From: Gammaproteobacteria bacterium
GTDB taxonomy: Bacteria; Pseudomonadota; Gammaproteobacteria; SZUA-229
Length of the DNA stretch: 64,000 nt
Direction: 5' to 3'
Assembly (NCBI GenBank): GCA_036567985.1
Contig: DATCTK010000044.1
Coordinates: 14,062-78,061, forward strand
The position numbers and the translations under genes were made by a program. The notes under the pieces are model-generated. The model was not told the DNA's origin and searched no databases. It saw only the letters and a list, made by a program, of their open reading frames with translations. Below, piece after piece: positions 5,845 through 59,968 of this stretch. Positions within the stretch are counted from its first letter, which is position 1; every line of letters starts with the position of its first letter.

Positions 5845-6516
5845 TTAACTGTTGCTGTCATGAGTTTTATTTTGCTTCAGGCCCTGTTCTACCGCAATAA
5901 CCGCGGCTTCGACCCGTGAGTGTACTTCCAGTTTGCGTAGAATCGCTTTAACGTGAAGTTTTACCGTGCCATCGGATATCCCCAGATTGCGTGCGATAAC
6001 CTTATTGCTCTGTCCATCGGCAAGCAGGCAGAGAATTTCCAGTTCGCGTGGTGTGAGCTCGGAAAACGGTGTTTCCTTTTCGACTTCTTCAATCGGGTCG
6101 CCCTGTACCATTTTTGCCAGCACATCGGTGAGGCCATGGGCAACCACGCTTTTGCCTTTTTCGATATCGCGCAGGGCACTGACCAGTTCATCCGGTTCCA
6201 TGTCTTTTAGTAGATAGCCCTGTGCGCCATTGCGCAGCGCTTCAACCAGATCATGTTCTTCATTGCTGGTAGTAAGCATTACAATGGGGATATCAATGTG
6301 CTGTTTTTTGGCTTCGATTAATACTTCCAGGCCGCTCATGTCTGGCATGCGTAAATCCAGCAGCACAATGTCCGGCTTGAGCTCATCAATCAGTTGCAGG
6401 CCGGTGGCGCCTTCGGCAACTGCATCTATGACTTCTATGCCGCGTTGTTCAAGCAGCCCCTGCAGGCCGACGCGGAACAGCGCGTGGTCATCAATTATTA
6501 ATACACGCATACTCAA
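5845..6516 (-). CDS. Two-component response regulator, NarL/LuxR family (REC plus LuxR HTH)
   Basis: 223 aa. The phospho-acceptor D lies in VLLDLRMPDMSG, and the C-terminal GQSNKVIARNLGISDGTVKLHV is a LuxR-type HTH. The gene overlaps the kinase stop by 4 bp. Confidence 0.85.
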   Translation of the reverse strand: MSMRVLIIDDHALFRVGLQGLLEQRGIEVIDAVAEGATGLQLIDELKPDIVLLDLRMPDMSGLEVLIEAKKQHIDIPIVMLTTSNEEHDLVEALRNGAQGYLLKDMEPDELVSALRDIEKGKSVVAHGLTDVLAKMVQGDPIEEVEKETPFSELTPRELEILCLLADGQSNKVIARNLGISDGTVKLHVKAILRKLEVHSRVEAAVIAVEQGLKQNKTHDSNS

Positions 6517-18612: not shown

Positions 18613-19689
18613 TTAGAAACGGATGTGAGTAGAAGCATTCAGGCTTGCACGAGCACCACGCCAGTTATCGATGTGGTATTTAGTGAAAGGCAGACCAGTC
18701 AGTTCGAAGAAACGAGGCCAGCCGATACGCTCAACCCACTCACCAACACGTTCCCAGTCACGCGCATCTTCTTTGTAGCACTTCAGGATCTGCTTAACGA
18801 TAGCAGTCGCTTCAGGCCAGCGTGGTGGGTTGTTAGGAATTGCAGAAGCAACCAGTTTCTGGAATGTAGGCTTACCACGTGCATTAGAGTGGTTACCACC
18901 AACCCATACTGCCAGTTTAGAATGCTCTGCATCATTGATTTGCATTGGAGGACAAGGAGGGAAACATGCACCACAACAGATACATTTCTTCTCGTCAACT
19001 TCCAGTGATGGCTTTCCGTCTACCAGGGCAGGACGAATAGCCGCTACAGGACAACGCGCTACAACAGATGGACGCTCACATACGTTAGAAACCTGTGAGT
19101 GGTCAATCTTGGGTGGCTTGGTGTGCTGAACGTTGATTGCGATGTCGCCCTGACCACCACAGTTGATCTGACAGCATGAAGTTGTCAGGTGAACACGGTT
19201 AGGCATGTTCCACTGACGGAATTCGTCAATCAGTTCGTCCATCATGGACTTAACAACGCCTGATGCGTCAGTACCAGGAATGTCGCAATGTAACCAGCCC
19301 TGTGTGTGAGACAGAGTAGTAACAGAGTTACGTGTACCACCAACAACGTAGCCTTTATCTTCAAGCGCTTTGATTAAAGGCTCTACTTTTGCTTCGTCGG
19401 TTACTGTGTATTCAACGTTTGAACGGATAGTGAAACGGATGTAACCGTCCGCATATTCGTCGCCGATTGAAGTCAGTTCACGCAGAGTGAACAGGTCAAG
19501 AATACGCTGAGTACCACACTTAACTGTGTAAACAGTTTCGCCGCTTTCAGCAACGTGGCATAAAACGCCAGGGCGTGGGTCAGTGTGATATTTCCACTGG
19601 CCAAAGTTACGACGCATCGCAGGATGCATGTACTGGAAACCGTCTGGACATCCAGACTCGATGGGCGGACGCATATCTGCCATTGCCAT
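18613..19689 (-). CDS. dsrB: Dissimilatory sulfite reductase beta subunit (reverse-acting type)
   Basis: 358 aa. Siroheme/Fe-S cysteine clusters (TTSCCQINCGG...; CICCGACFPPCP). It directly follows dsrA. Confidence 0.95.
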   Translation of the reverse strand: MAMADMRPPIESGCPDGFQYMHPAMRRNFGQWKYHTDPRPGVLCHVAESGETVYTVKCGTQRILDLFTLRELTSIGDEYADGYIRFTIRSNVEYTVTDEAKVEPLIKALEDKGYVVGGTRNSVTTLSHTQGWLHCDIPGTDASGVVKSMMDELIDEFRQWNMPNRVHLTTSCCQINCGGQGDIAINVQHTKPPKIDHSQVSNVCERPSVVARCPVAAIRPALVDGKPSLEVDEKKCICCGACFPPCPPMQINDAEHSKLAVWVGGNHSNARGKPTFQKLVASAIPNNPPRWPEATAIVKQILKCYKEDARDWERVGEWVERIGWPRFFELTGLPFTKYHIDNWRGARASLNASTHIRF

Positions 19690-19778
19690 GATTATTTCCT
19701 CAAGTTATATATTCAAATCTTTCAAAAATAGCCGTGAAAACTAATCCACGGCTATCGGTTCGTACAATGAAGGGCTAA

Positions 19779-21029
19779 TTAAGCTTCTGCTTGATTCTCA
19801 AACCACTTAATTGCTTCGTCATCCCAACCGTCCATACGAACGTAAGAGCTTTGACGTGTGTTGCTAACCATGTTTGGATTAACATCAATATCAAGGCCTT
19901 CCAGGAAGTTAACCAGACCGATACGCTCGATCATTTCACCGCAACGCTCGTGCTCAAGTGCATTTTCAGCCCAGAAGTCGATAACTTCTTCAGCCAGCTC
20001 AACCAGTTCTTCGTAATCGTCACGAGTTTCCAGCTTCTTGAAAGGCACAACAACTGTACCCATCAGGTCGCCGATTTTCAGTGTACGCTTACCACCGATA
20101 AGAACAGTAACGCCCTTGTCAGTACCAGTGCGCAGTGCTTTAGGCAGAACGTTGATGCAGTGCATGCAACGAACACAGTTACGGTTATCAACAGCAATTG
20201 TGTCGTCATCATTCAGTGCAAGTGCCTGAGTTGGGCAACGAGTAATAACGTTGTCGATAATGTATTGACGGCCTTTGGTTTCAATGTAGTTTTTGAACTC
20301 AGCCTGATCAACACGCATATCGTCACGCCATGTACCGATTACCGCAAAGTCAGCACGTTCGATAGCATTCTGACAGTCGTTTGGACAACCAGAAATCTTG
20401 AACTTGAATTTGTAAGGAAGTGCAGGACGGTGAACATCGTCTGTGAAGTTGTTAACCAACCAGCGCTGGATAGCGTGCTCGTTACAGTTAGACATCTCAC
20501 AACGTGCAGCACCTACACATGACATCGCTGTACGTACACATGGACCCGCACCACCCAGGTCCCAGCCATATTCATTGATTTCATCAAAGAATGCCTGAGT
20601 GCCTTTGGTAGTAGTACCGATAAACATGATGTTACCAGTCTGGCCGTGGAAAGTTACAAGGCCTGAACCGTGCTTTTCCCAGCTGTCGCCCAGCTTGTTT
20701 AACATCTCGGTTGTGTAGTAGTTACCTGGAGTAGGCTGTACACGCAGTGTGTGGAATTCTTTAGATTCCGGGAAAGCTGCTGCCACTTCAGAGAAGCGAG
20801 GGATAATACCACCGCCGTAACCAAATACAGATACAGTGCCGCCTTTCCAGTAGCCCTTACGCGTTTCGTAAGAGTGCTCTAACTGACCCAGCAGCGAGCT
20901 GGTCATGTCATTGATGAATTGGCTTTCGTGGTTGTCACGCAGAGCTTTGATACCAGTAATGAAGCTAGGCCAGGGACCTTTCTCCAGTTCGTCAAGCATC
21001 GGTGTTTCATAGATCTTATTTGCTGCCAT
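19779..21029 (-). CDS. dsrA: Dissimilatory sulfite reductase alpha subunit (reverse-acting type)
   Basis: 416 aa. Cys clusters CVRTAMSCVGAARCEMSNC and a ferredoxin domain CVRCMHC. Size and synteny match A. vinosum DsrA. Confidence 0.95.
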   Translation of the reverse strand: MAANKIYETPMLDELEKGPWPSFITGIKALRDNHESQFINDMTSSLLGQLEHSYETRKGYWKGGTVSVFGYGGGIIPRFSEVAAAFPESKEFHTLRVQPTPGNYYTTEMLNKLGDSWEKHGSGLVTFHGQTGNIMFIGTTTKGTQAFFDEINEYGWDLGGAGPCVRTAMSCVGAARCEMSNCNEHAIQRWLVNNFTDDVHRPALPYKFKFKISGCPNDCQNAIERADFAVIGTWRDDMRVDQAEFKNYIETKGRQYIIDNVITRCPTQALALNDDDTIAVDNRNCVRCMHCINVLPKALRTGTDKGVTVLIGGKRTLKIGDLMGTVVVPFKKLETRDDYEELVELAEEVIDFWAENALEHERCGEMIERIGLVNFLEGLDIDVNPNMVSNTRQSSYVRMDGWDDEAIKWFENQAEA

Positions 21030-21738
21030 GGCGATCTCCGTAGTAGGGACGACAGTTTATTATCCAAGGGGGGCTACTGCCTTGTCCCTCATCTAAATTT
21101 AAATATATGACCGAAGTCATAAGGTTAAAAATTTTCTGGGTTTGTCTCAAAACTGCGGTCGTCCAACCGCCGATTTAAAACATCCCAAATTTAGTACGAC
21201 GTAGTCTAGGCCGAGTTACCGGCTCAGAACATCTATCCCTTGGGAGGGTGTGTGATATTCCGGATATCCCTAATGGGATATGTCTTATTGGCCCAGTTCA
21301 GGGTCAATCCCCGATATGCCGCATAAAAATTGGGGTCAGTAATATAGCATACAAACCTGCGGGTCGTTAATCCATATATAAGATTTTTTTGTTGGCGGTT
21401 TGATCGCCCGCTGTGGCGGCGTTTTATGCGTGTGTGGATGGTTTTTATCCGGCAGCAGGTACCGGCTTTACTGGGTGTTTTCAATGGCGCCGGTCGAGCT
21501 CCGGGCTGGCGGTTATATCCATTATGGGTTGAGCTGTATAATTAAGTATCTGTGTGCCAAAACGCCTAATGTCTGGTTTGGCAGAAATCCGCTGACACAT
21601 TGGCTCGACTATGTGGGATTGCACATAGTCTGCTGTTTGCTCATATATATAAAGTATCCTATCTGCCTGTTAGGGATATTGCCTGGGTAGCGGGTAAATC
21701 GGATACACTGTAATCATGTTTGTTTTCAGGGTAATACA
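21030..21738. promoter_or_regulatory. 709-bp divergent intergenic region between dsrA and the TauD-like gene, containing palindromic GGGATAT motifs
   Basis: A perfect hairpin/palindrome ATATCCC-TAAT-GGGATAT lies at 21262-21284. Related half-sites are at 21671-21680 and 21306-21316. No credible ORF is present (21400-21690 has no RBS). Confidence 0.5.
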
Positions 21739-22632
21739 GTGCAATTTGATCCAGTCAGTACAGATACAACCTCTGCCTACCGCCACTGGCGTGATGGCAA
21801 GCAACGGGCCTATGAAAATAGTGCCCATACACAACTGATCGAGCTTGATTCACGGGCGCTTAACGGGGAGACGCTGCAGCGCCTGCTCGAAGCCTGTTCA
21901 CGCTTTAATTTTGTGCTCTACCGGCTGGCTGATCCGGCGCTGGGCGACAAGGCCTTTGTGCGCGAGCTGGGGCAGCAGCTGGGCTTGCAGCGGCTGGATG
22001 GTAACCTGTGCTCCGATGAGGATAATATCAGCTCGATCCAGGTGATGCAGGCGGGACGGCATACCGGCTATATCCCCTATACCGACCGCCAGCTGACCTG
22101 GCACACCGATGGCTATTACAACGACCCCGAGCGCACCATCCGCGCCATGGTGCTGCACTGTGTCAGGCCGGCAGCCAGTGGTGGCGAGAACCTGATGCTG
22201 GACCATGAAATGGCCTATCTGCAGTTGCGTGAGACCGAGCCCCGCTTTATTCAGGCGCTGGCGCAGCTTGATGTTCTGACCATTCCCCCCAATATAGAGA
22301 ATGGCAAGCAGATTCGCCCGGCGCAGAGTGGCCCGGTGTTCTCGCTGGATGCCCAGAGTAACAGCCTGCACATGCGCTATTCAGCCCGTACGCGGAATAT
22401 CGAATGGAAGCAGGATGCCTTAACCCAGGAGGCGCTGGCCTGTATGCGTGAGCTGCTGGACACCAATAACCATTATGTTATTACCTATAGAATGCAGGCG
22501 GGTGAAGGTATAATTGCCAATAACGTGCTGCATAACCGCACCGCATTTAGTGATGCCGAAGCCGTGGAACAGAAACGACTGTTATACCGCGCAAGATATT
22601 ATGATCGTGTTAAACCGCTAGAGAGCCCGTAA
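21739..22632 (+). CDS. TauD/TfdA-family Fe(II)/2-oxoglutarate-dependent dioxygenase
   Basis: 297 aa with a GTG start. WHTDGYY...PxxGGEN...H matches the TauD His-x-Asp...His facial triad region (compare E. coli WHTDVTF...STGGDT). Confidence 0.65.
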   Translation: MQFDPVSTDTTSAYRHWRDGKQRAYENSAHTQLIELDSRALNGETLQRLLEACSRFNFVLYRLADPALGDKAFVRELGQQLGLQRLDGNLCSDEDNISSIQVMQAGRHTGYIPYTDRQLTWHTDGYYNDPERTIRAMVLHCVRPAASGGENLMLDHEMAYLQLRETEPRFIQALAQLDVLTIPPNIENGKQIRPAQSGPVFSLDAQSNSLHMRYSARTRNIEWKQDALTQEALACMRELLDTNNHYVITYRMQAGEGIIANNVLHNRTAFSDAEAVEQKRLLYRARYYDRVKPLESP

Positions 22633-22823
22633 TGATTTACTTGAGTGACATACTGACCCAGGAGCATGAGCTGAACTGCTTCGAGGATCTGCTTGAAGTT
22701 GCACGGCAGAAGGCCCGTGACGGCGAGATTCACCTGGATGTAGATATCAAGCCGCCGTTCAAGGACACGCCCCGCGACTGGCAAAATCAGGTGGAGATGG
22801 CGTTTACCTTTCCCAATAGGTAA
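22632..22823 (+). CDS. Small hypothetical protein (63 aa), translationally coupled to the TauD-like gene (TAATG overlap)
   Basis: The ORF start overlaps the upstream stop codon. No recognisable domain. Confidence 0.4.
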   Translation: MIYLSDILTQEHELNCFEDLLEVARQKARDGEIHLDVDIKPPFKDTPRDWQNQVEMAFTFPNR

Positions 22824-22849
22824 GCAACTGATTTAAAAGAGAATATATT

Positions 22850-23563
22850 ATGTTATGGCAAGAAGATAAGAAAACCGAAGCCTATGTAGTGCCGGATACG
22901 GTGACTGACCTGTCCTTCAAGGTCGACTGTAAAATGGTGCCGCTGGATCATGCCCAGGAACTGTCTGATGCCATTCTGGAAATACTTCCCTGGATGGCCG
23001 ATGAACCCCAGGCAGGGGTGCACATGATTCACGGTGCCTCCACTGGCAATGGCTGGCAACGCCCGGAAGACGATACCAACGACGGCTGTATTTACCTGTC
23101 GCGCCGTTCACGCATGCGCATCCGTATGCCCAAGCACCGCCATGAAGATGCTGCGGCGCTGGTGAGGCAGACAATTCGCCTGGGCGGGCATGATTTAACC
23201 TTTGGTGATTTCCAGGTTAAAAAATTCAGCCCCCTGAGCACGCTGTTTTCCCGTTATGTGATTGTTGGCGACAATGAAAGTGAAGAAGCCTTTGTCAGCC
23301 GCGTCTCGGCGGAGATGAAGGAGATGGGGATCAACCTGCGCAAGGCGCTGTGTGGCATTGGCCATCGCTTTAATCTGGCAGAAGGGCCGGTGAACACCAT
23401 GAGCATTATGGTGGCCGATCTGGACCCGGAAGAGGCGGTGACACTGCAGCAGCAGGGCATAGGCGAGGGGCAGAAAATGGGTTTTGGCCTGTTTATTCCC
23501 CATAAAGGCATCAAGGCCGTGGGGGATATGTCGGAAAGCAGTCATTTTGATGGCACCGCCTGA
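22850..23563 (+). CDS. Cas6e (CasE/Cse3)-like RAMP-family protein, stand-alone with no array or other cas genes
   Basis: 237 aa. The C-terminal LQQQGIGEGQKMGFGLF matches the Cas6e glycine-rich loop of E. coli CasE (LVQQGIGPAKSMGCGLL) and the generic Cas6 GhGxxxxxGhG signature. Confidence 0.5.
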   Translation: MLWQEDKKTEAYVVPDTVTDLSFKVDCKMVPLDHAQELSDAILEILPWMADEPQAGVHMIHGASTGNGWQRPEDDTNDGCIYLSRRSRMRIRMPKHRHEDAAALVRQTIRLGGHDLTFGDFQVKKFSPLSTLFSRYVIVGDNESEEAFVSRVSAEMKEMGINLRKALCGIGHRFNLAEGPVNTMSIMVADLDPEEAVTLQQQGIGEGQKMGFGLFIPHKGIKAVGDMSESSHFDGTA

Positions 23564-23613
23564 TTTCGGCGGATTATAATTATATTATTTTCTACTGATG
23601 CACAATAACACCC

Positions 23614-23650
23614 GCGGGTTTTTTTGAAGCTCGGCGGGTGTTTTTGTGTG
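23614..23650 (+). terminator. GC hairpin(s) followed by T-tracts after the Cas6e-like gene (cacccgcgggttttttt ... ggcgggtgtttttg)
   Basis: Read from the sequence. Confidence 0.45.
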
Positions 23651-23838
23651 TGCTGTAGATGACCCAGGTTATTGAAAATTAAAAGAAAAATAAAATCTCT
23701 GCGCCAGATGCGGATAAACAAGATTTATAAGTCCATATATAACTAATGGGATAAGTGACATTAATGGGCTTTTATGATTAAGTATGCGCCCTAGAAATTA
23801 CTTGTTTAACTTGATCAATTGGGACTGAGGCAACAATC

Positions 23839-24159
23839 ATGGCACTTGAATCTGTTGAAAGAACTGACAAAGGTTACCTGGTAGACGCGAACGACTGGAA
23901 CGAAGAAATTGCGGCTGAGCTTTTCGCTGAAGAAGGCATTGAGCCGACTGACCGTCATTGGGATATCGTTAGATACGTTCGTGAAGAAACACTGGCAGGC
24001 AACGAGCCTAACGAGCGTGGCATTATGAAAGCGATGGGTAAGCTATGGGGTGAAAAAGTGACTTCCAAGCTTATGTACGAAATGTTCCCGCTTATGCCAT
24101 CCAAGCAAGGTCTGAAAATTGGCGGTTGCCCCATGTCTACACGCAAGGGCGGCTACTAG
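23839..24159 (+). CDS. DsrC/TusE/DsvC-family paralog lacking both canonical C-terminal cysteines
   Basis: 106 aa. It is colinear with DsrC (...HWDIVRYVRE..., ...YEMFPLMPSKQ...) but ends ...KQGLKIGGCPMSTRKGGY, whereas DsrC ends KQACKYAGLPKPTGCV. Confidence 0.8.
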   Translation: MALESVERTDKGYLVDANDWNEEIAAELFAEEGIEPTDRHWDIVRYVREETLAGNEPNERGIMKAMGKLWGEKVTSKLMYEMFPLMPSKQGLKIGGCPMSTRKGGY

Positions 24160-24290
24160 TAGTAAATAAATCGCCTCTATTCCTTATGGGGTAGAGGTAT
24201 TTTTTCCTGAATGCAGCTATACTACGCTCACTCGCTGGGCCCACATTAGTGGATAAGGCCGCACACAAACGAATTCATGAGGTTAGAACC

Positions 24291-24494
24291 ATGGCTGATA
24301 GAAATGCGCTGATCAAAGAACTGATCGAAATGCAGAACAAATTCATCGAAAACGAGCACAAGAACGGCTTTAATGCCAAAGAGTACTTCACACCAGAGTC
24401 TGGCACAGTGCTGGAAGGCTACCGTGAAACTTTCCGTGATAAAGCGATGGAGCTGGTTGACGCAGCACATGCGGATAAGGGTTCTCACCGCTAG
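24291..24494 (+). CDS. Small hypothetical protein (67 aa from the ATG preceded by GAGG; longer ORF from 24249)
   Basis: ORF with an RBS (gaggttagaaccATG) and followed by a strong terminator. No family recognised. Confidence 0.45.
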   Translation: MADRNALIKELIEMQNKFIENEHKNGFNAKEYFTPESGTVLEGYRETFRDKAMELVDAAHADKGSHR

Positions 24495-24617: not shown

Positions 24618-25292
24618 CTAGATTTCACTCCACATGCGCACCAGGTTGATATAGGTGTGATCGATTTTAACCACCTCCTCATCATCGGGGTATTTGCGCT
24701 GCAGCCGCTCACGGCTTTTATACAGGTTGTATAAAAGCTCGCGCTTCTCCGCCTCGCGAATCATGCTTTGCGCCCAGGTGACCGCAACCAGACGTTCCCC
24801 CTGCGTGACTTCCGCCACCCGATGCAGTGAGCCGGAGGGATAGGTAATGGCGCTGCCTGCGGGGAGTTTGATCTGCTGTTCACCGGACTGGGTCTGGATC
24901 ACAATTTCGCCGCCGCTGTAATCCTCCGGCTCATTAAGAAACACCGTGGTGGATACATCGGTGCGGTAACGGCCCTGCATGGGGCCCATCACCGGGTCAT
25001 CCACATGAAAGCCATAGGCTTCGCCCGGCTGGTAACGGGCGTAGAAAGGGGTGGCCTGGCGGTGCGGCAGTACCGCTGTCTGATAGTCAGCATGGTTGAA
25101 CAGCGCATTCATCACAATCTGGTTTAACTGACCCTGCAATTGGGAGTCTGCAGGTAGCTCGTGATTTTTTTTAACCTTGCGCGCACTGCTGCCGGCACTG
25201 AGGCGGCCATCGATAAAACGTGCACCGTCGAGCAGTTGCCTGACCTTGCCCAGTTGTTCCGCGTTGAGTACATCGGGGATGGCTAATAACAT
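24618..25292 (-). CDS. ybiX: PKHD-type Fe(II)/2OG hydroxylase (YbiX family)
   Basis: 224 aa. Colinear with E. coli YbiX, including the HxD...H region (FHVDDP...SLHRV). Confidence 0.75.
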   Translation of the reverse strand: MLLAIPDVLNAEQLGKVRQLLDGARFIDGRLSAGSSARKVKKNHELPADSQLQGQLNQIVMNALFNHADYQTAVLPHRQATPFYARYQPGEAYGFHVDDPVMGPMQGRYRTDVSTTVFLNEPEDYSGGEIVIQTQSGEQQIKLPAGSAITYPSGSLHRVAEVTQGERLVAVTWAQSMIREAEKRELLYNLYKSRERLQRKYPDDEEVVKIDHTYINLVRMWSEI

Positions 25293-26577: not shown

Positions 26578-27186
26578 TCAGGCAAATGAAATCCATGTGG
26601 TGGCCACATATTTAACACCCTGTTGCAGTTGCGAGTTGCGGTGCTCGTGGGTCCAGAAGGGTGGAAACAAAATTAGCGAGCCTTCAGTGGGTTGCACCGC
26701 AACATCCTGGTACATAAATTCGGTGGCACCGCCGGGGCCCGGTACATCATTTAAATACCACAGTGCTACCAGTTGTCGATCCGCAAAGTCATGGCTGCCG
26801 CCATCAATGTGCCAGTTATAATATTCCCCCACATCGGTGCGCTGCATATTGTAACCAATGTCTTTAAAACGTCCCTTGAAAAACGGGAAGGCTCCGGAGA
26901 ATTCACGCAGTGAGGTGCCCAGCGAGCGAAACAGTTCACGGGAAATATCCTGCCAGTGTTCATGGGCACTGATCGCAAGATCCGTCGACTGTTTTATATT
27001 GGGGTCTTCCTTGAAGTCCTGGCCAATGCGCCCACGATACTGTGATTGCTGGTCACTTTCAAAGCGGCGAATCATTTCCCGGCAGATATCTTTGGCCAGC
27101 GCATTTTCCCTGATAAAAATAAAACTGTCCTGCTTTACTTCTTTTAATGTCAGCAGGGGCTGGCGTTGGGTGGCATCGTGATACAT
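26578..27186 (-). CDS. 2OG-Fe(II) oxygenase superfamily protein (prolyl 4-hydroxylase-like)
   Basis: 202 aa. HxD...H: WHIDGG ... FWTHEH. Confidence 0.65.
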   Translation of the reverse strand: MYHDATQRQPLLTLKEVKQDSFIFIRENALAKDICREMIRRFESDQQSQYRGRIGQDFKEDPNIKQSTDLAISAHEHWQDISRELFRSLGTSLREFSGAFPFFKGRFKDIGYNMQRTDVGEYYNWHIDGGSHDFADRQLVALWYLNDVPGPGGATEFMYQDVAVQPTEGSLILFPPFWTHEHRNSQLQQGVKYVATTWISFA

Positions 27187-27239: not shown

Positions 27240-28310
27240 CTAAAAATAGTTGTCGTTAATCAATTTTTGCAGATGGCTGTCAGCAGCAGTGCCGTGTTGC
27301 TGGTACAGGCCAAGCATCTGTGTTGCCATATTAATCCAGTGTTCGTTGGCCGGCTCTATCAGTTCACTTAAGCTGCGAGTGTTTTTGCTCTCAAGCCAGC
27401 GACTGTAGGCCTGTTGCAAGCTGGGAAAAATCATCTTGCGCAGACTACTGAGATTGGCAAAATAAAAATGAATCTGCGCTGCTTCATTGTTTTCAATCAG
27501 TTTTGGTAATGTCGACTGCATGTCTGCAATATTGTCGCGCACCGCACGGGCCATCATTTCCGCCTGCGAGCGGGGCAGTTCCATTAACATGGTTTCCCAG
27601 AGTTCACCGAGTATTTTGCCCGCCTTGATCTCGCCGATTTCATGGTGCAGCACCGTATTAACTTCATTGTCGGTCATGCGCTCCAGTGCATCCTGTGGTG
27701 CCTGTTTAAAATCATAACAGGTGAGTGCCCGGGATAATGGATTTTCCTGCTTATGCCAGTGGGATTCCTCGAACTTTTCCCAGATAAAGCGGCGCAGTGA
27801 CTCACGCCGGATATACACGGTTTTATCCTGCGTCATGCCCGGTGGTGCGGCCAGGTCCCGCGCCAGTTCCCGGCCGGAAACATACAGGGTGAAATCTTCG
27901 TGTGTTTCCTTGTGCTTCAGTTCGGCGAGAAAAAATACCGGCTTGCCATAGAGTCCATAGCCGCCGCTGTATACCAGTTGTTCCGCTTCCAGCTGCTGGT
28001 TAATGGCGGCACTGTCATACAGGTCAAAGCGCTGGTCATTAATATCGAGGTTGCTCAGGGGGCGGGTTTCTATTTCATCCCACAGGGCTTCGCGCTGGGT
28101 CAGCCATTTGCCAATGTGGCTGTTATCCAGGCTCTGGCTAAAGGGTAACTGGTGCTCCCAGCGATAGAATTCACGCATTTTTAGCAGGTAAATACACAGC
28201 GTGTAGTTGCCTGCATACTGGGCATCGGAAATGTGGCAATTGTCTTGAACGAGCTGGGTGAGTGCTTGCATAAGTCTCCCATTGGCCAATCGCAGCAGTT
28301 GAACCAGCAC
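27240..28310 (-). CDS. Hypothetical protein (356 aa)
   Basis: Long ORF with no recognised motifs. It lies divergent to 28531-29112. Confidence 0.45.
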   Translation of the reverse strand: MLVQLLRLANGRLMQALTQLVQDNCHISDAQYAGNYTLCIYLLKMREFYRWEHQLPFSQSLDNSHIGKWLTQREALWDEIETRPLSNLDINDQRFDLYDSAAINQQLEAEQLVYSGGYGLYGKPVFFLAELKHKETHEDFTLYVSGRELARDLAAPPGMTQDKTVYIRRESLRRFIWEKFEESHWHKQENPLSRALTCYDFKQAPQDALERMTDNEVNTVLHHEIGEIKAGKILGELWETMLMELPRSQAEMMARAVRDNIADMQSTLPKLIENNEAAQIHFYFANLSSLRKMIFPSLQQAYSRWLESKNTRSLSELIEPANEHWINMATQMLGLYQQHGTAADSHLQKLINDNYF

Positions 28311-29431: not shown

Positions 29432-29981
29432 CTAACTCCTGGTAAAGACCATGTTTAGTCACATATCGTTGGCTGTGCTGCCAGCGACACTTGAAATAGG
29501 TTAATGTCGGAAAAAGGCAGTCGAGTACCTTTTTCAGAATGCGCGATAGTATAGCAGACTGATAAACTGGCTATATATCCCTATAGGGAGGGGTGGAACA
29601 TCTACCCTAGTAAGTCAGGGGATTCTACGGCTAAAGCGCGAAAAATCAAGGATTAAGCTCATTTCTGCACTAAAACCGTCGCAAAAGCCGTCATCACGGG
29701 CTGTGCGGTGGTGTCGCTAACCCGGCGGCCAGCTCATGTCAGCGCCTGCTGTGGGCCATGTCGGCGCGCTGGTGGGCTGATTCAGCATCACTGCACAGTG
29801 GCGGGGACTAAATCCACAAATAAGCCCCGTTTATGTTCATTATTAAACTCTGTTAATATGCAGCGGTTTAAATGAGAATTATTCTCCCCATATAGGGATA
29901 TACGCTGCCCGCGGGCCCTGCTTTATGCTAGGCGGTGCCTGTCTGGCGAATCCCCCCAATAGCAAGATTAAGAGGTTTACC

Positions 29982-35005: not shown

Positions 35006-35950
35006 ATGCTATTAAGGATATTTGGTCTATGCTGTGCGCTGGTCGTGTCTGGCTGTAGTCAGAATGGCGAACCCACCTTGCGTATCGGCACCAATGTATG
35101 GCCTGGTTATGAACCGCTGTATCTGGCCAGGCAGCTGGGCCATCTGGACAGCAAGCGTATCCGCCTGATTGAATACACCTCGACCTCCCAGGTACTGAAA
35201 GCCTATCGTAGTGGCCTGATCGATGGCGCTGCCGTTACCCTTGATGAAGCCATCAGCCTGCAGGCGGCGGGTGAGGATGTGCGTGTGGTGCTGGTGCTGG
35301 ATGTGTCTGACGGTGCAGACGCGCTGGTTGCACATCGGGATATAGCGCGGCTTGAGGATCTTGAAGGCAAACGTATCGGTGTTGAGCATTCCGCGCTGGG
35401 TGCCTATTTAATCAGCCGGATTATTACCAGGGCACAGCTGGATGAGAGCCAGTTGCAAATTGTGCCGCTGGAAGTGAACCGACATCAACGGGCGTTTCTT
35501 GATGGCGAGGTCGATGCGGTTGTGACCATGGAACCGGTTCGTAGCCGTTTGCTTGAAGCAGGTGGCCAGGTACTGTTTGACAGTTCGCAGATACCCGGTG
35601 AAATTGTTGATGTACTGATTGTGCGTGCCGACAGGCTGGCACAATTTGGCGGGCATGTGGAATATCTGCAAAACGTCTGGTTTGATGTGATAGCACAGAT
35701 AAAAAAATCACCACAGCTACATCTGGCAGATTTGAATAGCCGCTTACGGCTGGAGGAAAACGATGCCAGGTTCGCATTCAGCGCAATCCGCTTTCCCGAC
35801 AGAACAGATAATCAGCGCATGTTGAGCGCAAGCGGAAAAAACAATTTGCTGCAGCTGTCTCGCGAGATGACTAAACTTATGCATGAACATCGTTTAATTC
35901 AGGCCCAGGTGAACACCGAGGTGATGTTCACAGGCAATAACCCCCAATAA
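35006..35950 (+). CDS. Periplasmic substrate-binding lipoprotein (NMT1/SsuA/TauA-like ABC-type binding fold), likely the sensing partner of the adjacent kinase
   Basis: Lipobox LVVSGCSQ. It has a type-2 periplasmic binding fold and lies immediately upstream of the hybrid HK, with no transporter genes nearby. Confidence 0.65.
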   Translation: MLLRIFGLCCALVVSGCSQNGEPTLRIGTNVWPGYEPLYLARQLGHLDSKRIRLIEYTSTSQVLKAYRSGLIDGAAVTLDEAISLQAAGEDVRVVLVLDVSDGADALVAHRDIARLEDLEGKRIGVEHSALGAYLISRIITRAQLDESQLQIVPLEVNRHQRAFLDGEVDAVVTMEPVRSRLLEAGGQVLFDSSQIPGEIVDVLIVRADRLAQFGGHVEYLQNVWFDVIAQIKKSPQLHLADLNSRLRLEENDARFAFSAIRFPDRTDNQRMLSASGKNNLLQLSREMTKLMHEHRLIQAQVNTEVMFTGNNPQ

Positions 35951-35958
35951 TACAGTGC

Positions 35959-38286
35959 GTGCCTATGCGATTTCCCCTCAGTGTTAAGGTTTCAATCGGT
36001 GTTGTAGTAGCCGTGGTGCTAATCGTTAGCATCCTGCTGGTAAATGCCTACTATTTTCTGATTGCCTACGAAACCGATGAGCTGAAACGTAAACTGCATG
36101 TTGACCTGTCACGCATGCAGCATACCCTGGAGTTTCTGTCCCGACATAATGAGCACGAACAAATGCAGGTGGAGCTGTCATCACTGGCGACACTGCCGCA
36201 TGTTCAACTGGCGCTGTTGCTTGATGAAAACAGCCGTGTTATTGCTTCCTCGCAACTGGTACACCTGGGGAAAAATGCTGTTGATGGTGTACTGACCCGT
36301 CAAGGCCAGGCAGTGCTGCAAAACAAACAGACATCAGGCAATCGCCTGAGTTCGCTGGTATGGGAGGACAAGAGTGCACAGCATCTGTTCGCGATTTATC
36401 CACTGGTGCTGGGCTTGCAGGATACTGACAAATTAATTGATAACCGTATCGGTTATATCTATGCACGCCTGGATCTTTCATGGGCCGCCGACAAATCGAT
36501 GCAGATACTGCAGCTAAAGGCTGCACCCATGCTGTTTATATTGCTGCTGATGGTGGCGTTTTTTATTGTCCTGCATGATCGGTTCCTGGTGCGCAGAATT
36601 AAAAATATTAACCAGGCGGCGAAAGCTTTTGCCAGTTCGGGTTATCAGTCACGGGCCAGGGTTAAAGGCAATGATGAGCTCACTGACCTGGCGATCAGCT
36701 TTAACCAGATGGCCGACACCGTAGAACAGAAAAATACCGAGCTGGTGAATAAGGAAGAAAGTATTTCATTGATACTGAATACCATGGAGAACGGTGTGAT
36801 CACCATTGATGAAGGCGGTCGGATACACAGTTTTAACCGTGCTGCAGAGAGAATGTTCGGTTACAGCGATACGGAAATTATCGGTAAAAATGTCAGTTGC
36901 ATTATGCCCGAGCCCTATCGCAGTGAACATAACGGTTATATACAGCATTTCCTGCAAACCGGTGAAAAGAAAATTATTGGCAATGCCCGCGATGTGCCAG
37001 CACAACACAAGGACGGAGATGAATTCTCAATTCACCTGTCTGTGAATGAGTTGCCATACCAGGTTGACGGTAAACGCATGTTTATCGGATCCTGCACAGA
37101 CATTACGCTGTTAAAACAGCAGGAGATGCAGTTAAGGCATAGCCAGAAAATGGATGCACTGGGTAAACTTACCGGTGGTATCGCCCATGACTACAATAAT
37201 ATGCTGGGGGTGATACTGGGGTATTCCGAGCTGTTGCTGGATCAGTTGCCCGATGATTCAAAAATTAAAAAATACGTTAATGAAATTTTCCATGCTGGCA
37301 ACCGGGGTGCGAATCTGACGAAAAAACTACTCTCATTTTCCCGGCAGAAATCGGCTGAGCCAGATGTGGTGGATATCAATAGTGTGCTGGAACAGAACAG
37401 AAACATGCTGGAAAAAACGCTCACTGCGCGTATCCAGCTTGAGTTTCATCAGCAGGCAGATCTGTGGCCGGTGTTTCTTGATCGAAATGACCTGGAAGAC
37501 GCCATATTAAATATGAGTATTAACGCCATGCATGCAATCGAAGGCAGTGGCAAGCTGGATATACAAACCCGTAATTTCAATATCGATCGAACGCAGGCGG
37601 CTGAACTAAAACTGCCGACAGGTGCGGGTGAATATGTGCGTCTACGCATTTGTGATACGGGTTATGGAATCGACGACGAGTCGCTGGGGCGTATCTTCGA
37701 TCCTTTTTATTCCACCAAGGGTGACCAGGGCAGTGGGCTGGGGCTGAGCCAGGTATATGGTTTTGTTAAACGCAGTTCGGGGCTGGTGCGGGTTGAATCG
37801 GAACTTGCCCGTGGTACCTGTTTTGATCTGTATTTCCCGCGTTATCTGGGGGAGCTGGTGCAAACAGCGTCAAATAAACAGACACAGGCAGCAACCGCGC
37901 GAGGCAAGGAAACGATTCTGGTGGTGGATGATGAGCCTTCATTGCGCTTTTTGCTGGAAGAAACCCTGAGCACGGTCGGTTATACGGTGTTTATGGCAGA
38001 AAATGCGGAACAGGCAATTGAGGTGCTGCAAAAGGAACACATTGACCTGATGATCAGCGATGTCATTATGCCGGGTATGGATGGCTATAAGCTGGCTGAA
38101 TATGTACGTGAACATTATCCGCAGATAAAAATTCAACTGGCCAGTGGATACAGTGATAACCGTCATCAGCAAAGTCGTGACCCGGAACTGCATGATACCC
38201 TGCTAGTAAAGCCCTTCGATCGTCAGCATTTGCTCTATCGAGTACGGGAGTTACTGCATGGAGATGCCACGGGTGGCGATGCATAG
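35959..38286 (+). CDS. Hybrid sensor histidine kinase (TM, HAMP, PAS, HisKA, HATPase_c, REC)
   Basis: 775 aa. Its H-box is AHDYNNMLGVI and it has HATPase motifs (DTGYGIDDE, GSGLGLS). A C-terminal receiver domain is present (VVDDEPS...DVIMPGMDG). Confidence 0.85.
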   Translation: MPMRFPLSVKVSIGVVVAVVLIVSILLVNAYYFLIAYETDELKRKLHVDLSRMQHTLEFLSRHNEHEQMQVELSSLATLPHVQLALLLDENSRVIASSQLVHLGKNAVDGVLTRQGQAVLQNKQTSGNRLSSLVWEDKSAQHLFAIYPLVLGLQDTDKLIDNRIGYIYARLDLSWAADKSMQILQLKAAPMLFILLLMVAFFIVLHDRFLVRRIKNINQAAKAFASSGYQSRARVKGNDELTDLAISFNQMADTVEQKNTELVNKEESISLILNTMENGVITIDEGGRIHSFNRAAERMFGYSDTEIIGKNVSCIMPEPYRSEHNGYIQHFLQTGEKKIIGNARDVPAQHKDGDEFSIHLSVNELPYQVDGKRMFIGSCTDITLLKQQEMQLRHSQKMDALGKLTGGIAHDYNNMLGVILGYSELLLDQLPDDSKIKKYVNEIFHAGNRGANLTKKLLSFSRQKSAEPDVVDINSVLEQNRNMLEKTLTARIQLEFHQQADLWPVFLDRNDLEDAILNMSINAMHAIEGSGKLDIQTRNFNIDRTQAAELKLPTGAGEYVRLRICDTGYGIDDESLGRIFDPFYSTKGDQGSGLGLSQVYGFVKRSSGLVRVESELARGTCFDLYFPRYLGELVQTASNKQTQAATARGKETILVVDDEPSLRFLLEETLSTVGYTVFMAENAEQAIEVLQKEHIDLMISDVIMPGMDGYKLAEYVREHYPQIKIQLASGYSDNRHQQSRDPELHDTLLVKPFDRQHLLYRVRELLHGDATGGDA

Positions 38287-56582: not shown

Positions 56583-57407
56583 TCAGGATAACAAGTTAAA
56601 GATCCGGGAATACCAGGCGGAGTTGGCCGGATATTCTTTGAGTACCTGGGCGAGCATTACCGATACATTGTCCTTGCCGCCATGGTCTTTGGCCTGTTTG
56701 ATTAATTCCTGGTTCATTTTTTCCAGATCGTTTTTATAGTTGAGCTGAATGTCTTCTATCAGGTCGTCGCTGATCATATCGGTAAGACCATCGGAGCACA
56801 GCAGATACAGATCATTCTGCAGCGCAATGTCTTCCAGCAGGTCAATTTCTACCGTCGGGCTTACTCCTACGGCGCGGGTCACCAGGTTCTTGTTCAGCGA
56901 CTCACGCGCCTCCTTGCGCGTATAAAAGCCCCGATCCACCAGTTCCTGTAATAGCGTGTGGTCGCGGGTCAGTTGCTCCAGCAGTGTGTCACGCAGCCGA
57001 TACAGACGTGAATCGCCAACGTGGGCAACTGTGATGCGATTATCATAAAACAGCAACACCACAATGGTGGTGCCCATGCCTTCATACTGTGAATTATCCT
57101 GCGCGGTGTGGTAAATATGGGAATTTGCATTTTTAATCGCGCTTTCAACCGCCATGCTTTCCAGGCTGTAGCCGGTAGTGTCATCGGTTTTTCCACTGGC
57201 AATCTCCGGTAACACCTTGCGCAGTTCCTGCAGTATCGAATCTACCGCAATTGCGCTGGCAACTTCACCACCCTTGTGGCCGCCCATGCCGTCGGCCAGT
57301 ACCAGCAGCCCCAGATCCGCATCACTGCCGATGGTATCTTCATTGTTGCTGCGTACCAGGCCGGTGTCGGTAATGCCGCTGATGCTGATTTTATCTGCCA
57401 GACTCAT
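56583..57407 (-). CDS. PP2C-family Ser/Thr protein phosphatase (Stp-like)
   Basis: DGMGGH motif and the metal-binding Asp residues. The stop overlaps the kinase gene start. Confidence 0.85.
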   Translation of the reverse strand: MSLADKISISGITDTGLVRSNNEDTIGSDADLGLLVLADGMGGHKGGEVASAIAVDSILQELRKVLPEIASGKTDDTTGYSLESMAVESAIKNANSHIYHTAQDNSQYEGMGTTIVVLLFYDNRITVAHVGDSRLYRLRDTLLEQLTRDHTLLQELVDRGFYTRKEARESLNKNLVTRAVGVSPTVEIDLLEDIALQNDLYLLCSDGLTDMISDDLIEDIQLNYKNDLEKMNQELIKQAKDHGGKDNVSVMLAQVLKEYPANSAWYSRIFNLLS

Positions 57408-59968
57408 TCTTGCTCAGCCTTCTTCTGCATGGCCGCCAGCTGCATGCATTTACGCAGGTCGGATGCCATCTGTGCGCCGGTCTGGTAGCGTTTTTCCGGG
57501 TCCTTGGCCAGTGCACGGTTAATAATTACCGTGACGCAGCGTGGCAGTTCAGGGCGGATGGTATCCGGTTTGGGGTGGGGCTCATTGGCAATCTTAAACA
57601 TCAGTGTGGCCATGGACTCACCCTGGAACGGTAAGCGGCCGGTGACCAGCTGGAACATCATGACTCCCAGCGAGAACAGGTCGGAGCGGCCATCCACCTT
57701 TTTACCGGACAGCTGTTCCGGTGACATATAGGATGGGGTTCCCAGTACCATGCCGGTTTTGGTTTTGCTGGAGTCGGTGATGCGGGCGATGCCGAAGTCG
57801 GTAATTTTCAGGCCATCGGTTTCCGCTTCGTACATCACATTGGCCGGTTTGATATCACGGTGCACCACATTCTGCTGATGTGCATAGTGCAGGGCTTCAG
57901 CGGCGCGGCGGATGATATCCATCACCGTGATCACCGGCAGCAGATTGTCCGGTTTGCTGTAGCGCACCAGGTCATGGCCCTTGAGGTACTCCATGGCGAT
58001 ATAGGCCAGGTCGTGCTCTTCGCCGGCATCATAAATGGTGACGATATTGGGATGGCTTAAGCGGCCTGCGGTTTCCGCTTCGCGGAAAAAGCGTGCTTTC
58101 ACTTCCTGCAGTTCATCTTCCTCGAACTCCTGGGCCAGGGCCATGGTTTTAATCGCCACAATACGTGCGATTTTCGGGTCACGCCCCAGGTACACCGAGC
58201 CCATGGCGCCCTTGCCGATTTCTTTCTCAACCGCATAACGACCCAGCATAGGTTTCTCGAAACCTTTTTTATCCAGCCTGAGTCCGCGCGAGGAGGCAGA
58301 CGCACCGCCCAGAATCACACTGGCATCCATCGCCTCGGCACGGTAGCTGCGGTCTTTGGCATCGCGGAATTTCGGGTTGAGTTCGATAATCATCTGATAC
58401 ACCGAAACCGCTTTATTGAAGACGCGCTTGCGTTCGAAATCCAGTGCCAGGTTATACAGCAGCTCCAGTTTTTCACTGGATTTTGGCAGGCGACGGAATT
58501 TTTCAAATGCCGCATCCAGCTGGCCCTGACCCTGCAGGGATAAGCCCAGCATGCGATTGGTTTCTGCGGATTCCGCATCCAGTGCCAGCTTGCCTTTTTC
58601 GGTGACCAGGTAACGCTTTGAGGTTATCAGTATATGGCCGGCCACCAGCAACACCGCCGGGTTCATCAGCTGCAGCCACAGGCCGTGGCTAGTCATCAGT
58701 GTGTAATGGGTAACCAGCAGTGCGCTCAGTATGATCAGGCTGAGGGTGGTGGACAGACCGGCATTCATGCGTGGCAGCAGCAGGATAATGTACAGCGCAA
58801 TGCCCAGGGTGATACCAATAATCGCCTGGCGGCTCCATTGCGGCTGGATAAAAAAGTCTTCGTTAAGAATGCTAGAAACCGAATGCGCCAGTGTCAGCAC
58901 CGGGGCCATGCTGGAACTGATCGGTGTGATCATGCTGCTGCCGACACCCACTGCGGTGGCACCGATAAGTACGGTTTTGCCTTTGTATTTGCTGGCGGGA
59001 ATTTTACCGGCGAGCACGTCATAGAATGAATCCACCGGGAACACCGGGCCGTTACTGTTACTGTAGAAAAAGGTATTCATCAGCAGATTGGGGCTGGTTT
59101 TGATAGTCAGTCCACCCAGTTGCACACTTTCCCCAAGGTTAACCACTACATCATCCGGGCCAAGGTTCAGGCTGCGCATGGCAATCTGCAGTGACAGCGA
59201 CGGATACATCTGGTTGTAGTAATCCAGCACCAGTGGTTCGGAGCGAATACTGCCGTCGGCTTCACGGTAGGTGGACAATGCGCCAATGCTGTCGGCTTCA
59301 CGCCCCAGCAGTTCAATCGGGTAAAGAATTTCTGATACCGGTAACGGCATGGCATTATCGGGGTTGGTGGCGGGGTTGTTCTTTATATTCAGTAACTGGT
59401 TACGACTGACGTAATCTGGAAGCGAGGTGTCCGGGCGACCGATGGGTTTGTCGTTTTTCATCTGCATCGCGAGTATCACATTATCGCTGGCGCGCAGGCT
59501 GTTGGCCAGGGTCTGGTCGCTGTTCAGGTCTTTTTCCGCGGTTAGCAGGCGATTGCCCAGCTCGGCAATATCGGCGCTGATCGCCTGGTTCTTCTGGTTG
59601 AGCTGCAGCAGCTCGCTATTGGCATAAAATTGCAGCAGTTGCTGGATATGCATCAGCCCGGGGTCGAGTTGTGGCTCGACAAAAAACACGCTCTGTGCAA
59701 TGACTTTGGCACCGCCCTCGGTAAGTAGCTGTTGCATCTCGGCATGCACATTGCGCGACCAGGGCCAGCGACCGATATTGGCGATGCTCTCATCGTCAAT
59801 CGCAATCACCGCGATCTTGTCACTGGCGCTCTGTGTGGAAGCCTGCACCCCCAGGTCATACGCATTGCGCTCCAGGCTATCGAACAGGCCGGCTCTTCCC
59901 AGTGAAATCACCACAATGCATATGGCAAGACCGGTAACCCAGTCTTTTTTCCAGAATGCCTGCTTCAT
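57404..59968 (-). CDS. CHASE2 sensor domain, TPR and Ser/Thr protein kinase fusion
   Basis: 854 aa. N-terminal CHASE2 with TM helices. C-terminal Hanks kinase (GKGAMGSVY, HRDIKPAN, DFGIA, SPE). Confidence 0.85.
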   Translation of the reverse strand: MKQAFWKKDWVTGLAICIVVISLGRAGLFDSLERNAYDLGVQASTQSASDKIAVIAIDDESIANIGRWPWSRNVHAEMQQLLTEGGAKVIAQSVFFVEPQLDPGLMHIQQLLQFYANSELLQLNQKNQAISADIAELGNRLLTAEKDLNSDQTLANSLRASDNVILAMQMKNDKPIGRPDTSLPDYVSRNQLLNIKNNPATNPDNAMPLPVSEILYPIELLGREADSIGALSTYREADGSIRSEPLVLDYYNQMYPSLSLQIAMRSLNLGPDDVVVNLGESVQLGGLTIKTSPNLLMNTFFYSNSNGPVFPVDSFYDVLAGKIPASKYKGKTVLIGATAVGVGSSMITPISSSMAPVLTLAHSVSSILNEDFFIQPQWSRQAIIGITLGIALYIILLLPRMNAGLSTTLSLIILSALLVTHYTLMTSHGLWLQLMNPAVLLVAGHILITSKRYLVTEKGKLALDAESAETNRMLGLSLQGQGQLDAAFEKFRRLPKSSEKLELLYNLALDFERKRVFNKAVSVYQMIIELNPKFRDAKDRSYRAEAMDASVILGGASASSRGLRLDKKGFEKPMLGRYAVEKEIGKGAMGSVYLGRDPKIARIVAIKTMALAQEFEEDELQEVKARFFREAETAGRLSHPNIVTIYDAGEEHDLAYIAMEYLKGHDLVRYSKPDNLLPVITVMDIIRRAAEALHYAHQQNVVHRDIKPANVMYEAETDGLKITDFGIARITDSSKTKTGMVLGTPSYMSPEQLSGKKVDGRSDLFSLGVMMFQLVTGRLPFQGESMATLMFKIANEPHPKPDTIRPELPRCVTVIINRALAKDPEKRYQTGAQMASDLRKCMQLAAMQKKAEQE

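Follow-up and report, generated by a model that had tools for sequence, protein, structure and literature searches.

A lone Cas6-like gene, here called Cas6L, lies head-to-head with the sulfur-oxidation genes dsrAB in a 64,000-nucleotide stretch of a Gammaproteobacteria genome (contig DATCTK010000044.1; hereafter the window, whose numbering is used unless a locus is named), with neither a CRISPR array nor any other cas gene in that stretch. Its relatives form a large, old clade under purifying selection, descended from the type I-B (Cmx6) Cas6 proteins and standing outside CRISPR-Cas, and this clade is a fixed neighbour of reverse dsr genes in many uncultured marine Gammaproteobacteria. The gene belongs to a module, (TauD)-s63-(p235)-Cas6L-DsrC/RspA-like-(p67), where brackets mark members that some loci lack, that in sulfur-oxidising Gammaproteobacteria normally stands head-to-head with their reverse dsr operon. 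The constant features of the module are s63, a protein of ~235 amino acids (aa), a DsrC/RspA-like protein and adjacency to dsrAB; the lineage of the window retains TauD and s63 and has lost p235. It is the non-CRISPR clade and its module that are new, whereas the protein family itself is already known and annotated. The searchable literature (8 million full texts) yielded no account of an orphan Cmx6-type Cas6, whether linked to dsr or not, which agrees with the original prediction, made from the sequence of the window, that the arrangement is undescribed.

The genes of the locus are the following.

18613-21029 (-): dsrAB, divergent from the cassette (TIGR02064, 607 bits; TIGR02066, 522 bits)
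21739-22632 (+): TauD/TfdA-family Fe(II)/2-oxoglutarate dioxygenase, 297 aa (PF02668), the optional first gene of the cassette
22632-22823 (+): s63, an open reading frame (ORF) of 63 aa whose start overlaps the TauD stop, of no known family
22850-23563 (+): Cas6L, 237 aa, of a Cas6b/Cmx6-derived, non-CRISPR clade (PF09559, TIGR02807, AlphaFold2 model, Foldseek)
23839-24159 (+): DsrC/TusE/RspA-family paralogue (DsrC-like), 106 aa (PF04358, TIGR03342)
24291-24494 (+): p67, 67 aa, of no family; the listed ORF starts at GTG 24249

The 607 bits belong to dsrA (19779-21029, minus strand, divergent from the cassette) and the 522 bits to dsrB. Beyond dsrAB the operon runs on to DsrM-like, DsrK, DsrL-like and DsrN-like genes, which mark it as a dsr operon of the oxidative type. 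The TauD stop and the s63 start share the overlap TAATG and, as read from the sequence, the window's TauD and s63 are coupled in translation. The original prediction had described a three-gene cassette of a Cas6e-like protein, a TauD/TfdA-family oxygenase and a 63-aa ORF overlapping the oxygenase stop, divergent from dsrA. The three ORFs, the oxygenase family, the overlap and the neighbouring dsrA were all found as described. The cassette is, however, part of a larger module, as the DsrC-like gene and the 67-aa gene come next.

By family profile and predicted structure, Cas6L is a genuine Cas6-fold protein of the repeat-associated mysterious protein (RAMP) superfamily, derived from Cas6b/Cmx6 rather than from Cas6e. 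It matches the Pfam family PF09559 ‘Cas6 Crispr’ with an E-value of 2.2e-56 and 191.3 bits (cut-off 26.7) and TIGR02807 cas6_cmx6 (type I-MYXAN) with 129.3 bits (curated cut-off 98.85), and a profile of its homologues finds a single family in the PDB, the Cas6 of a type I-B CRISPR-associated transposon (8fcj_B, 1.7e-18). The AlphaFold2 model has a mean predicted local distance difference test (pLDDT) score of 84 and a predicted template-modelling score (pTM) of 0.83. In Foldseek, its best matches are the type I-B Cas6 chains 8fcu_B/8fcj_B, with template-modelling (TM) scores of 0.73-0.81, a root-mean-square deviation of 2.3 Å and an E-value of 7e-17, the best single match being 8fcu_B (TM 0.73/0.81). 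At E<=1e-3, 38 of the 39 matches are Cas6 chains and the remaining one is the Cas6 domain of a Cas6-RT-Cas1 fusion; Pyrococcus furiosus Cas6 comes next, at a TM of about 0.57. The model contains the duplicated ferredoxin/RRM (RAMP) fold, so that both things on which the original prediction had staked a Cas6-fold protein in a non-CRISPR setting, a Cas6 profile match and this fold, were found. Its likening of the protein to Cas6e did not hold, as Cse3/Cas6e matches are much weaker (TM about 0.38-0.5, E-values of 7e-6 to 2e-3) and no Cas6e family match was obtained in Pfam or NCBIfam; Cas6e identity was rejected on these two grounds. The chain had also been thought to end at ...GFGLF, but it carries 22 further residues at the C-terminus (IPHKGIKAVGDMSESSHFDGTA).

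The residues that Cas6L shares with real Cas6b proteins are conserved across the clade. The glycine-rich loop GhGxxxxxGhG is present as GIGEGQKMGFG (residues 203-213), with glycines conserved at 92-96%, and these GxGxxxxxGxG glycines are common to real Cas6b and the clade representatives. Helix 1 opens with D33-H34, which corresponds in the alignment to the ADH motif of the Gloeothece and Synechocystis Cas6b proteins; H34, the candidate catalytic histidine, is kept in 92%. The further positions common to real Cas6b and conserved in the clade are D20, F23, P31, R86, R88, R92, R135, F148 and Q200. Other features set the clade apart. An inserted loop, (A/G)xSGNGWxRP (residues 62-72), is nearly invariant and occurs in 150/150 among the matches listed, down to about 30% identity to the window protein; it has low pLDDT in the AlphaFold2 model and is missing from real Cas6b. 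H58 and a PHK(G/S)I motif directly after the glycine-rich loop are likewise common to the listed 150 and absent from CRISPR-linked Cmx6.

The HMMER search behind these figures covered 1.84 billion cluster representatives and returned 1534 clusters at E<=1e-3, of which 294 reach E<=1e-30; as a lower bound, the clade holds at least 150 clusters at 50% identity. All named members are metagenome-assembled genomes of Gammaproteobacteria (Thiohalobacteraceae, Thiotrichaceae, Competibacteraceae, a siboglinid endosymbiont and vent metagenomes), and PGAP labels them ‘type I-MYXAN CRISPR-associated protein Cas6/Cmx6’. No gene fusions joining Cas6L to a partner were seen, the longer proteins being mis-called starts or insertions. 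One copy (L024, 6001-6693) has an in-frame stop at 6259-6261, at a conserved Arg position, and is either a pseudogene or an assembly error.

Evidence for a module comes from gene order. Our sample included 26 species-representative genomes and 80 loci from a metagenome scan seeded with a distant subclade; hidden Markov models (HMMs) were built for each neighbour, all loci were scanned, and 110 loci were typed by architecture. In the 26 species-representative genomes, down to 41% Cas6L identity, the order is identical as far as each contig extends: dsrB and dsrA leftwards, then TauD, s63, Cas6L, the DsrC-like gene and p67 rightwards, and longer contigs carry a complete dsrABEFHCMK... operon on the far side. 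dsrA is adjacent and divergent in 44 of the 52 loci with enough upstream DNA, a dsr-linked context that recurs down to about 35-40% identity, and a DsrC-family gene directly follows Cas6L in 59/78 loci. The architectures, with DsrCl for the DsrC-like gene, were distributed as follows.

TauD-s63-Cas6L-DsrCl: 26 loci
s63-p235-Cas6L-DsrCl: 20 loci
TauD-s63-p235-Cas6L-DsrCl: 12 loci
smaller architecture classes: the remainder of the typed loci

An s63-p235-Cas6L arrangement without a detected TauD accounts for 31/110 loci, 20 of them with a DsrC-like gene downstream, and in loci with complete upstream DNA (for example, L038, L042, L054 and L077) the gap separating dsrA from s63 is too short to hold TauD. 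In one locus (L031), TauD, a counterpart of s63 (s61), Cas6L, the DsrC-like gene and p67 lie together away from dsr, between MMPL and gatCAB genes, and this joint relocation argues for a functional unit and not for inherited synteny alone. The only Cas6L copies with neither cassette nor dsr neighbours (L105, 3985-6814 and 9400-9730; L047, L048, L088 and L108-L110) are solo copies flanked by transposases, which points to rearrangement driven by insertion sequences in one organism rich in them.

The search for a CRISPR context was negative at every level, as the original prediction had it. No CRISPR array was found in the 64 kb by Tandem Repeats Finder, direct-repeat and Rfam scans. PADLOC, run on 47 window ORFs, returned only Cas6 models among Cas proteins, within 25 families among the matches listed, and phmmer with 12 proteins from two real I-B(MYXAN) loci (Cas3, Cas8, Cas7, Cas5, Cas4/1 and Cas2) gave no match at E<=1 to window ORFs of at least 50 aa. 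A hidden array or hidden cas genes in the window are thus ruled out by the repeat, Rfam, PADLOC and phmmer scans, and by context analysis the regions flanking L001-L112 were free of cas genes. By tblastn against plasmids, CRISPR-embedded relatives were found only in cyanobacteria, at 22-27% identity: a Gloeothece PCC 7424 plasmid carries cas6-cas3-cas8a1-devR-cas5-cas4/1-cas2, and pSYLB of Synechocystis sp. PCC 6714 carries the same cas set and an array with the repeat GTGTCCAAACCATTGATGCCGTAAGGCGTTGAGCAC, which has a 5-bp stem and a GTAA loop. The array of a real I-B(MYXAN) locus has a period of 71 nt. Cas6b of this type is the hairpin-holding subunit of Cascade (PMC11096372).

The partners of Cas6L are mostly proteins of no known family. 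s63 has no Pfam or NCBIfam match; its homologues lie just upstream of Cas6L or p235, were found by tblastn in most loci and are positive by HMM in 80 of the ~110 related loci scanned. The protein p235 (~235 aa) has its gene, in most relatives, between s63/TauD and Cas6L (L023 5292-5999, L024 5231-5956, L025 4632-5360, L027 7292-7999, L028 7284-7988 and most of L033-L112); it has no relatives in Pfam, NCBIfam or the PDB, and a search of the whole 64-kb window for it was negative. p67, also without a family match, is conserved behind the DsrC-like gene in L001-L032. Together with s63, p235 and Cas6L there is normally the DsrC-like protein, which matches PF04358 at 4.7e-23 (82 bits) and TIGR03342 with 70.4 bits (cut-off 53.5). 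DsrC is defined by its C-terminal AGLPKPTGC(V/A) arm, and RspA-type members lack the cysteines (PMC8477390). The window protein is without this arm and the penultimate Cys and ends in ...GGCPMSTRKGGY, or in ...GLPESxRKGGY in distant relatives, and a true dsrC sits in the dsr operon. We therefore rejected its identity as DsrC proper, the sulfur-carrying substrate of DsrAB, for which the Cys-bearing arm is missing; by sequence it is an RspA-like member of the DsrC/TusE/RspA superfamily. A link between an RspA-like protein and a Cas6-like gene has not been described.

The oxygenases are less regular members. The TauD-like protein matches PF02668 with 1e-22 and 81.8 bits (cut-off 27) and falls far below the cut-offs of specific enzymes (TmpA, the nearest, 68.9 of 400 bits; carnitine_bodg, the gamma-butyrobetaine hydroxylase, 46.6 of 415), so that taurine dioxygenase, TmpA and gamma-butyrobetaine hydroxylase identities were all rejected; PDB matches were found only at 3.5e-6 or weaker. 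Its iron triad is kept: all 29 homologues carry WH[TS]D, and 28 of the 29 the distal His. The original prediction saw this oxygenase as a partner and looked to the co-occurrence of the three genes in relatives. Only part of this stood: s63 accompanies Cas6L in most loci, but TauD is optional and not the defining partner; with none detected in the 31/110 loci above, its standing as an obligate partner is ruled out. A PKHD/YbiX-like oxygenase and p67 were each detected in about 40% of loci, a share that may be an underestimate for p67, since the near clade alone supplied its HMM. PKHD/YbiX lies within 3.5 kb in 21/50 loci and was rejected as a constant neighbour on that count. In the window, three Fe(II)/2-oxoglutarate oxygenases, namely the TauD-like, the PKHD/YbiX-like and a PF13640 protein, stand within about 6-6.5 kb with a DUF6866 protein beside them (21739-22632 (+), 24618-25292 (-), 26578-27186 (-) and 27240-28310 (-)), and the PADLOC model ‘2OG, CAS-associated’ picks out two proteins of the window at 7.8e-17.

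Alignment of the long dsrA-cassette intergenic regions (376-709 nt) revealed a palindrome, of which the window holds these sites.

21265-21280: Site 1, the 16-bp palindrome TATCCC-TAAT-GGGATA, in the dsrA-cassette intergenic region
23738-23753: Site 2, the half-palindrome TATAAC-TAAT-GGGATA, upstream of the DsrC-like gene and abutting a -35-like GTGACA
24173-24198 (+): Site 3, the hairpin/palindrome GCCTCTATTCC-TTAT-GGGGTAGAGGT (16-bp site at 24178-24193), between the DsrC-like gene and p67
29576-29591: a fourth palindrome site

Site 1 is perfect in 18/29 loci and has at most one mismatch in most of 56 loci, in both clades, and its position is conserved in about 28 loci; the window has 7 matches at two mismatches or fewer against 1.6 expected. 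TATCCC-N4-GGGATA, with a variable spacer, also occurs at L005 12321 and L006 12401. Sites 2 and 3 likewise occupy conserved positions. Among 51 copies of Site 1, 31 pair perfectly, 11 pair only as a minus-strand RNA, 6 only as a plus-strand RNA and 3 are broken on both strands, and a two-sided compensatory change was seen in one copy only (L022). Site 2 keeps just the right half (TAATGGGATA), directly against the -35-like GTGACA, Site 3 is ~24 nt upstream of a conserved GCTATAMT box, and TTGAC(C/T) often comes after Site 1 in the distant clade. Because compensatory covariation is almost absent, Site 2 is a half-site and the elements lie just upstream of -35-like hexamers, we treat the palindrome as an operator; it probably behaves like the site of a dimeric transcription factor near promoters, that of a regulator of the dsr regulon. 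Both the DsrC-like gene and p67 have a promoter-like region of their own with the palindrome, and the sites argue for co-regulation of the cassette, the DsrC-like gene and p67 with dsr. A regulatory role has been proposed for the RspA family, and the RspA-like protein is, by analogy, a reasonable candidate for the binder of the palindrome.

Other elements were noted in the same regions. A conserved box, TAATAT(A/T)AGC (21338-21347), lies 60-130 nt from the palindrome, at the same position in L001-L106, with AGTCAACG before it in the distant clade and GTTAATCC after it in the clade of the window; in several loci it stands 25-45 nt before the first cassette gene. Its place makes it the likely -10/start region of the cassette promoter, although the promoter scan instead calls a minus-strand promoter here (TTAACG-18-TATATT, 21370-21341). 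Past the Cas6L stop, a CACCCGC...GCGGGTG stem with an 18-nt loop, followed by TTTTTGT (23609-23646), was seen by eye and is a possible terminator between the TauD-s63-Cas6L operon and the DsrC-like gene; the automated terminator scan, whose loop limit is 8 nt, did not call it. The 5' leader of dsrA (~21070-21095) contains a small GGC-N4-8-GCC hairpin within a G-rich/C-rich pair, ~35-60 nt 5' of the dsrA start and conserved throughout the near clade; L015 carries GGG...CCC there, possibly a compensatory change.

Our preferred reading, tentative and in our judgement somewhat short of an even chance, is that Cas6L was exapted as a hairpin-RNA-binding or -processing factor of the dsr regulon, as its sequence and predicted structure suggest. 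Cas6L would recognise one specific stem-loop RNA and bind or cleave it in the manner of Cas6, its target being a cellular transcript of the dsr regulon and not a CRISPR repeat, and in this way it would determine how stable the sulfur-oxidation mRNAs are or how they are translated. Its partners would be the proteins s63 and p235, transcription of the module would be tied to dsr through the shared palindromic operator, possibly bound by the cysteine-less DsrC/RspA-like protein, and the TauD-like oxygenase would be an accessory in some lineages only. We arrived at RNA recognition because conservation is highest at the DH motif, the Arg strand and the glycine loop, which Cas6L has in common with real Cas6b. 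Had the RNA chemistry been abandoned, D33-H34, R86/R88/R92, R135 and GxGxxxxxGxG would be expected to drift, and all are still conserved. Endoribonuclease activity is putative; Cas6L keeps the His that it shares with real Cas6b, but is acidic and has lost most basic residues from its G-loop. The wider proposition, that a long-ago domesticated Cas6 ribonuclease forms with s63 and p235 a new non-CRISPR ribonucleoprotein module controlling dsr transcripts, is more doubtful. If true, such a module would act in sulfur-oxidising Gammaproteobacteria that form a large and environmentally dominant group, animal symbionts included, and with Cas6L a Cas6 lineage would for the first time have a metabolic housekeeping role.

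Several results weigh against an RNA-directed role. No RNA target for Cas6L emerged from the Rfam, repeated-hairpin, downstream-hairpin or palindrome-pairing analyses: no Rfam family matched, no repeated hairpin family was found within 1-30000 of the window, dsr operon and cassette included, and across loci no common hairpin lies downstream of Cas6L, where there are only varied terminators. The palindrome, tried as the RNA hairpin of Cas6L, was rejected for its near-zero covariation, its one-sided changes on both strands, the half-site at Site 2 and the adjoining -35-like hexamers. Cas6L of the window is acidic (pI 5.35, net charge -10; clade median pI 6.5), whereas real Cas6b proteins have a pI of 9.4-9.6, and the G-loop has 0-1 basic residues in 107/151 clade representatives where real Cas6b has three (KRR). 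The functional statements, moreover, are drawn from sequence, predicted structure and gene neighbourhood. These same observations, namely the acidic shift, the loss of basic residues from the G-loop and the lack of a detectable RNA substrate in the Rfam, hairpin and palindrome analyses, favour the main rival, in which the Cas6 fold is reused as a protein-binding or scaffold subunit. Cas6L would then join s63, p235 and possibly the DsrC/RspA-like protein in a complex that would help, sense or control the sulfur relay of the Dsr machinery; it could, for instance, partner DsrAB/DsrC in assembly or regulation, or serve as co-regulator of the RspA-like protein. The clade-specific surface loop SGNGWxRP, invariant, of low pLDDT and missing from real Cas6b, fits such a role, as does the fact that Cas6L constantly occurs with a DsrC-family protein and two others that are small or unknown. 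However, a pure scaffold does not obviously need the strongly conserved DH motif, Arg strand and glycine-rich loop, and no Cas6L-partner gene fusions were found; we regard this protein-only role as somewhat less likely than the RNA-directed one.

Less probable again, and in our view improbable, is an oxygen-dependent module in which the TauD-like, PKHD/YbiX-like and second PF13640 oxygenases hydroxylate one of its components (s63, p67, the tail of the DsrC-like protein or an RNA held by Cas6L) and so couple dsr expression to oxygen, an idea near to the original prediction's pairing of an oxygenase with Cas6. Three 2-oxoglutarate oxygenases within 6 kb, the two matches to ‘2OG, CAS-associated’ at 7.8e-17, the conserved catalytic triad of TauD and the translational coupling of TauD and s63 in the window would suit it, but TauD is missing from a large share of loci and PKHD is within 3.5 kb in only 21/50. 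As no oxygenase is a constant partner, a module of this kind would be at most a lineage-specific addition. It is also conceivable that Cas6L is an ordinary CRISPR component, acting in trans or left over, for an array and cas genes elsewhere in the genome, and lies beside dsr by chance. The protein passes the TIGR02807 cut-off and bears the PGAP name Cas6/Cmx6, and Cas6 is supplied in trans to type III systems, which borrow it (PMC12669027). The dsr-linked context in 44/52 loci, down to about 35-40% identity, speaks against chance, the fixed insertions and the charge set the clade apart from CRISPR-linked Cmx6, there are no Cas partners within 64 kb, and the solo copies are flanked by insertion sequences, so we give this last explanation very little credence. 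A defence role, which the original prediction had entertained, is unlikely because of the strict linkage to a housekeeping energy operon.

From the perspective of annotation, considerably more than a thousand database proteins that bear the label ‘type I-MYXAN CRISPR-associated Cas6/Cmx6’ have no CRISPR association, and mislabelled Cas6L inflates CRISPR counts in the genomes of sulfur oxidisers and symbionts. For CRISPR evolution, the clade would, if our reading is true, be a clear case of Cas6 moving from immunity to a cellular function, and Cas6L would then be a natural, compact hairpin-binding scaffold with altered surface properties. For sulfur microbiology, a conserved and uncharacterised set (s63, p235, Cas6L, the RspA-like DsrC paralogue and p67) stands with a conserved, probable operator beside dsrAB. 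The regulation of the oxidative Dsr pathway is poorly understood, and the gene set provides testable handles in any cultivable carrier. Elsewhere in the window, we noted an SsuA-like sulfonate-binding protein beside a PAS hybrid histidine kinase (35006-38286), an 854-aa protein (57404-59968, minus strand) whose C-terminal Ser/Thr kinase domain matches the PADLOC PD-T4-6 and MADS6 kinase models, and one ORF matching the PADLOC model ‘RtcR_PspF2 CARF_AAA_HTH’ at 1.7e-115.

Among known systems, Cas6L is closest to the type I-B (‘MYXAN’) Cas6b/Cmx6 proteins, with which it shares the Pfam and TIGRFAM families, the double-RRM fold, the DH motif, the Arg-rich strand and the GxGxxxxxGxG loop. It differs from them in its 22-27% identity, in not lying beside cas3-cas8-cas7-cas5-cas4/1-cas2 or an array, and in its SGNGWxRP insertion, PHK motif, acidic charge and G-loop without KRR. 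With Cas6e (CasE/Cse3) it shares the general RAMP fold and a glycine-rich loop, but the structural match is much weaker and there is no family match. Like the RspA-type proteins of the DsrC/TusE/RspA superfamily, the DsrC-like protein passes the TIGR03342 level and lacks the AGLPKPTGC(V/A) arm; unlike them, it has a conserved tail of its own, ...(G/C)P(E/M)SxRKGGY. Cas-derived proteins outside adaptive immunity are known from the Myxococcus DevTRS system and from the array-less, Cascade-like type IV/‘type U’ modules. These, too, are Cas-family proteins that persist though adaptation module and array are missing, and their roles are presumed to be regulatory or of another kind (PMC3150331). However, they are multi-subunit sets of Cas5, Cas7 and Cas8, whereas Cas6L is a solitary Cas6 derivative, set in an energy-metabolism locus and with partners of no known family.

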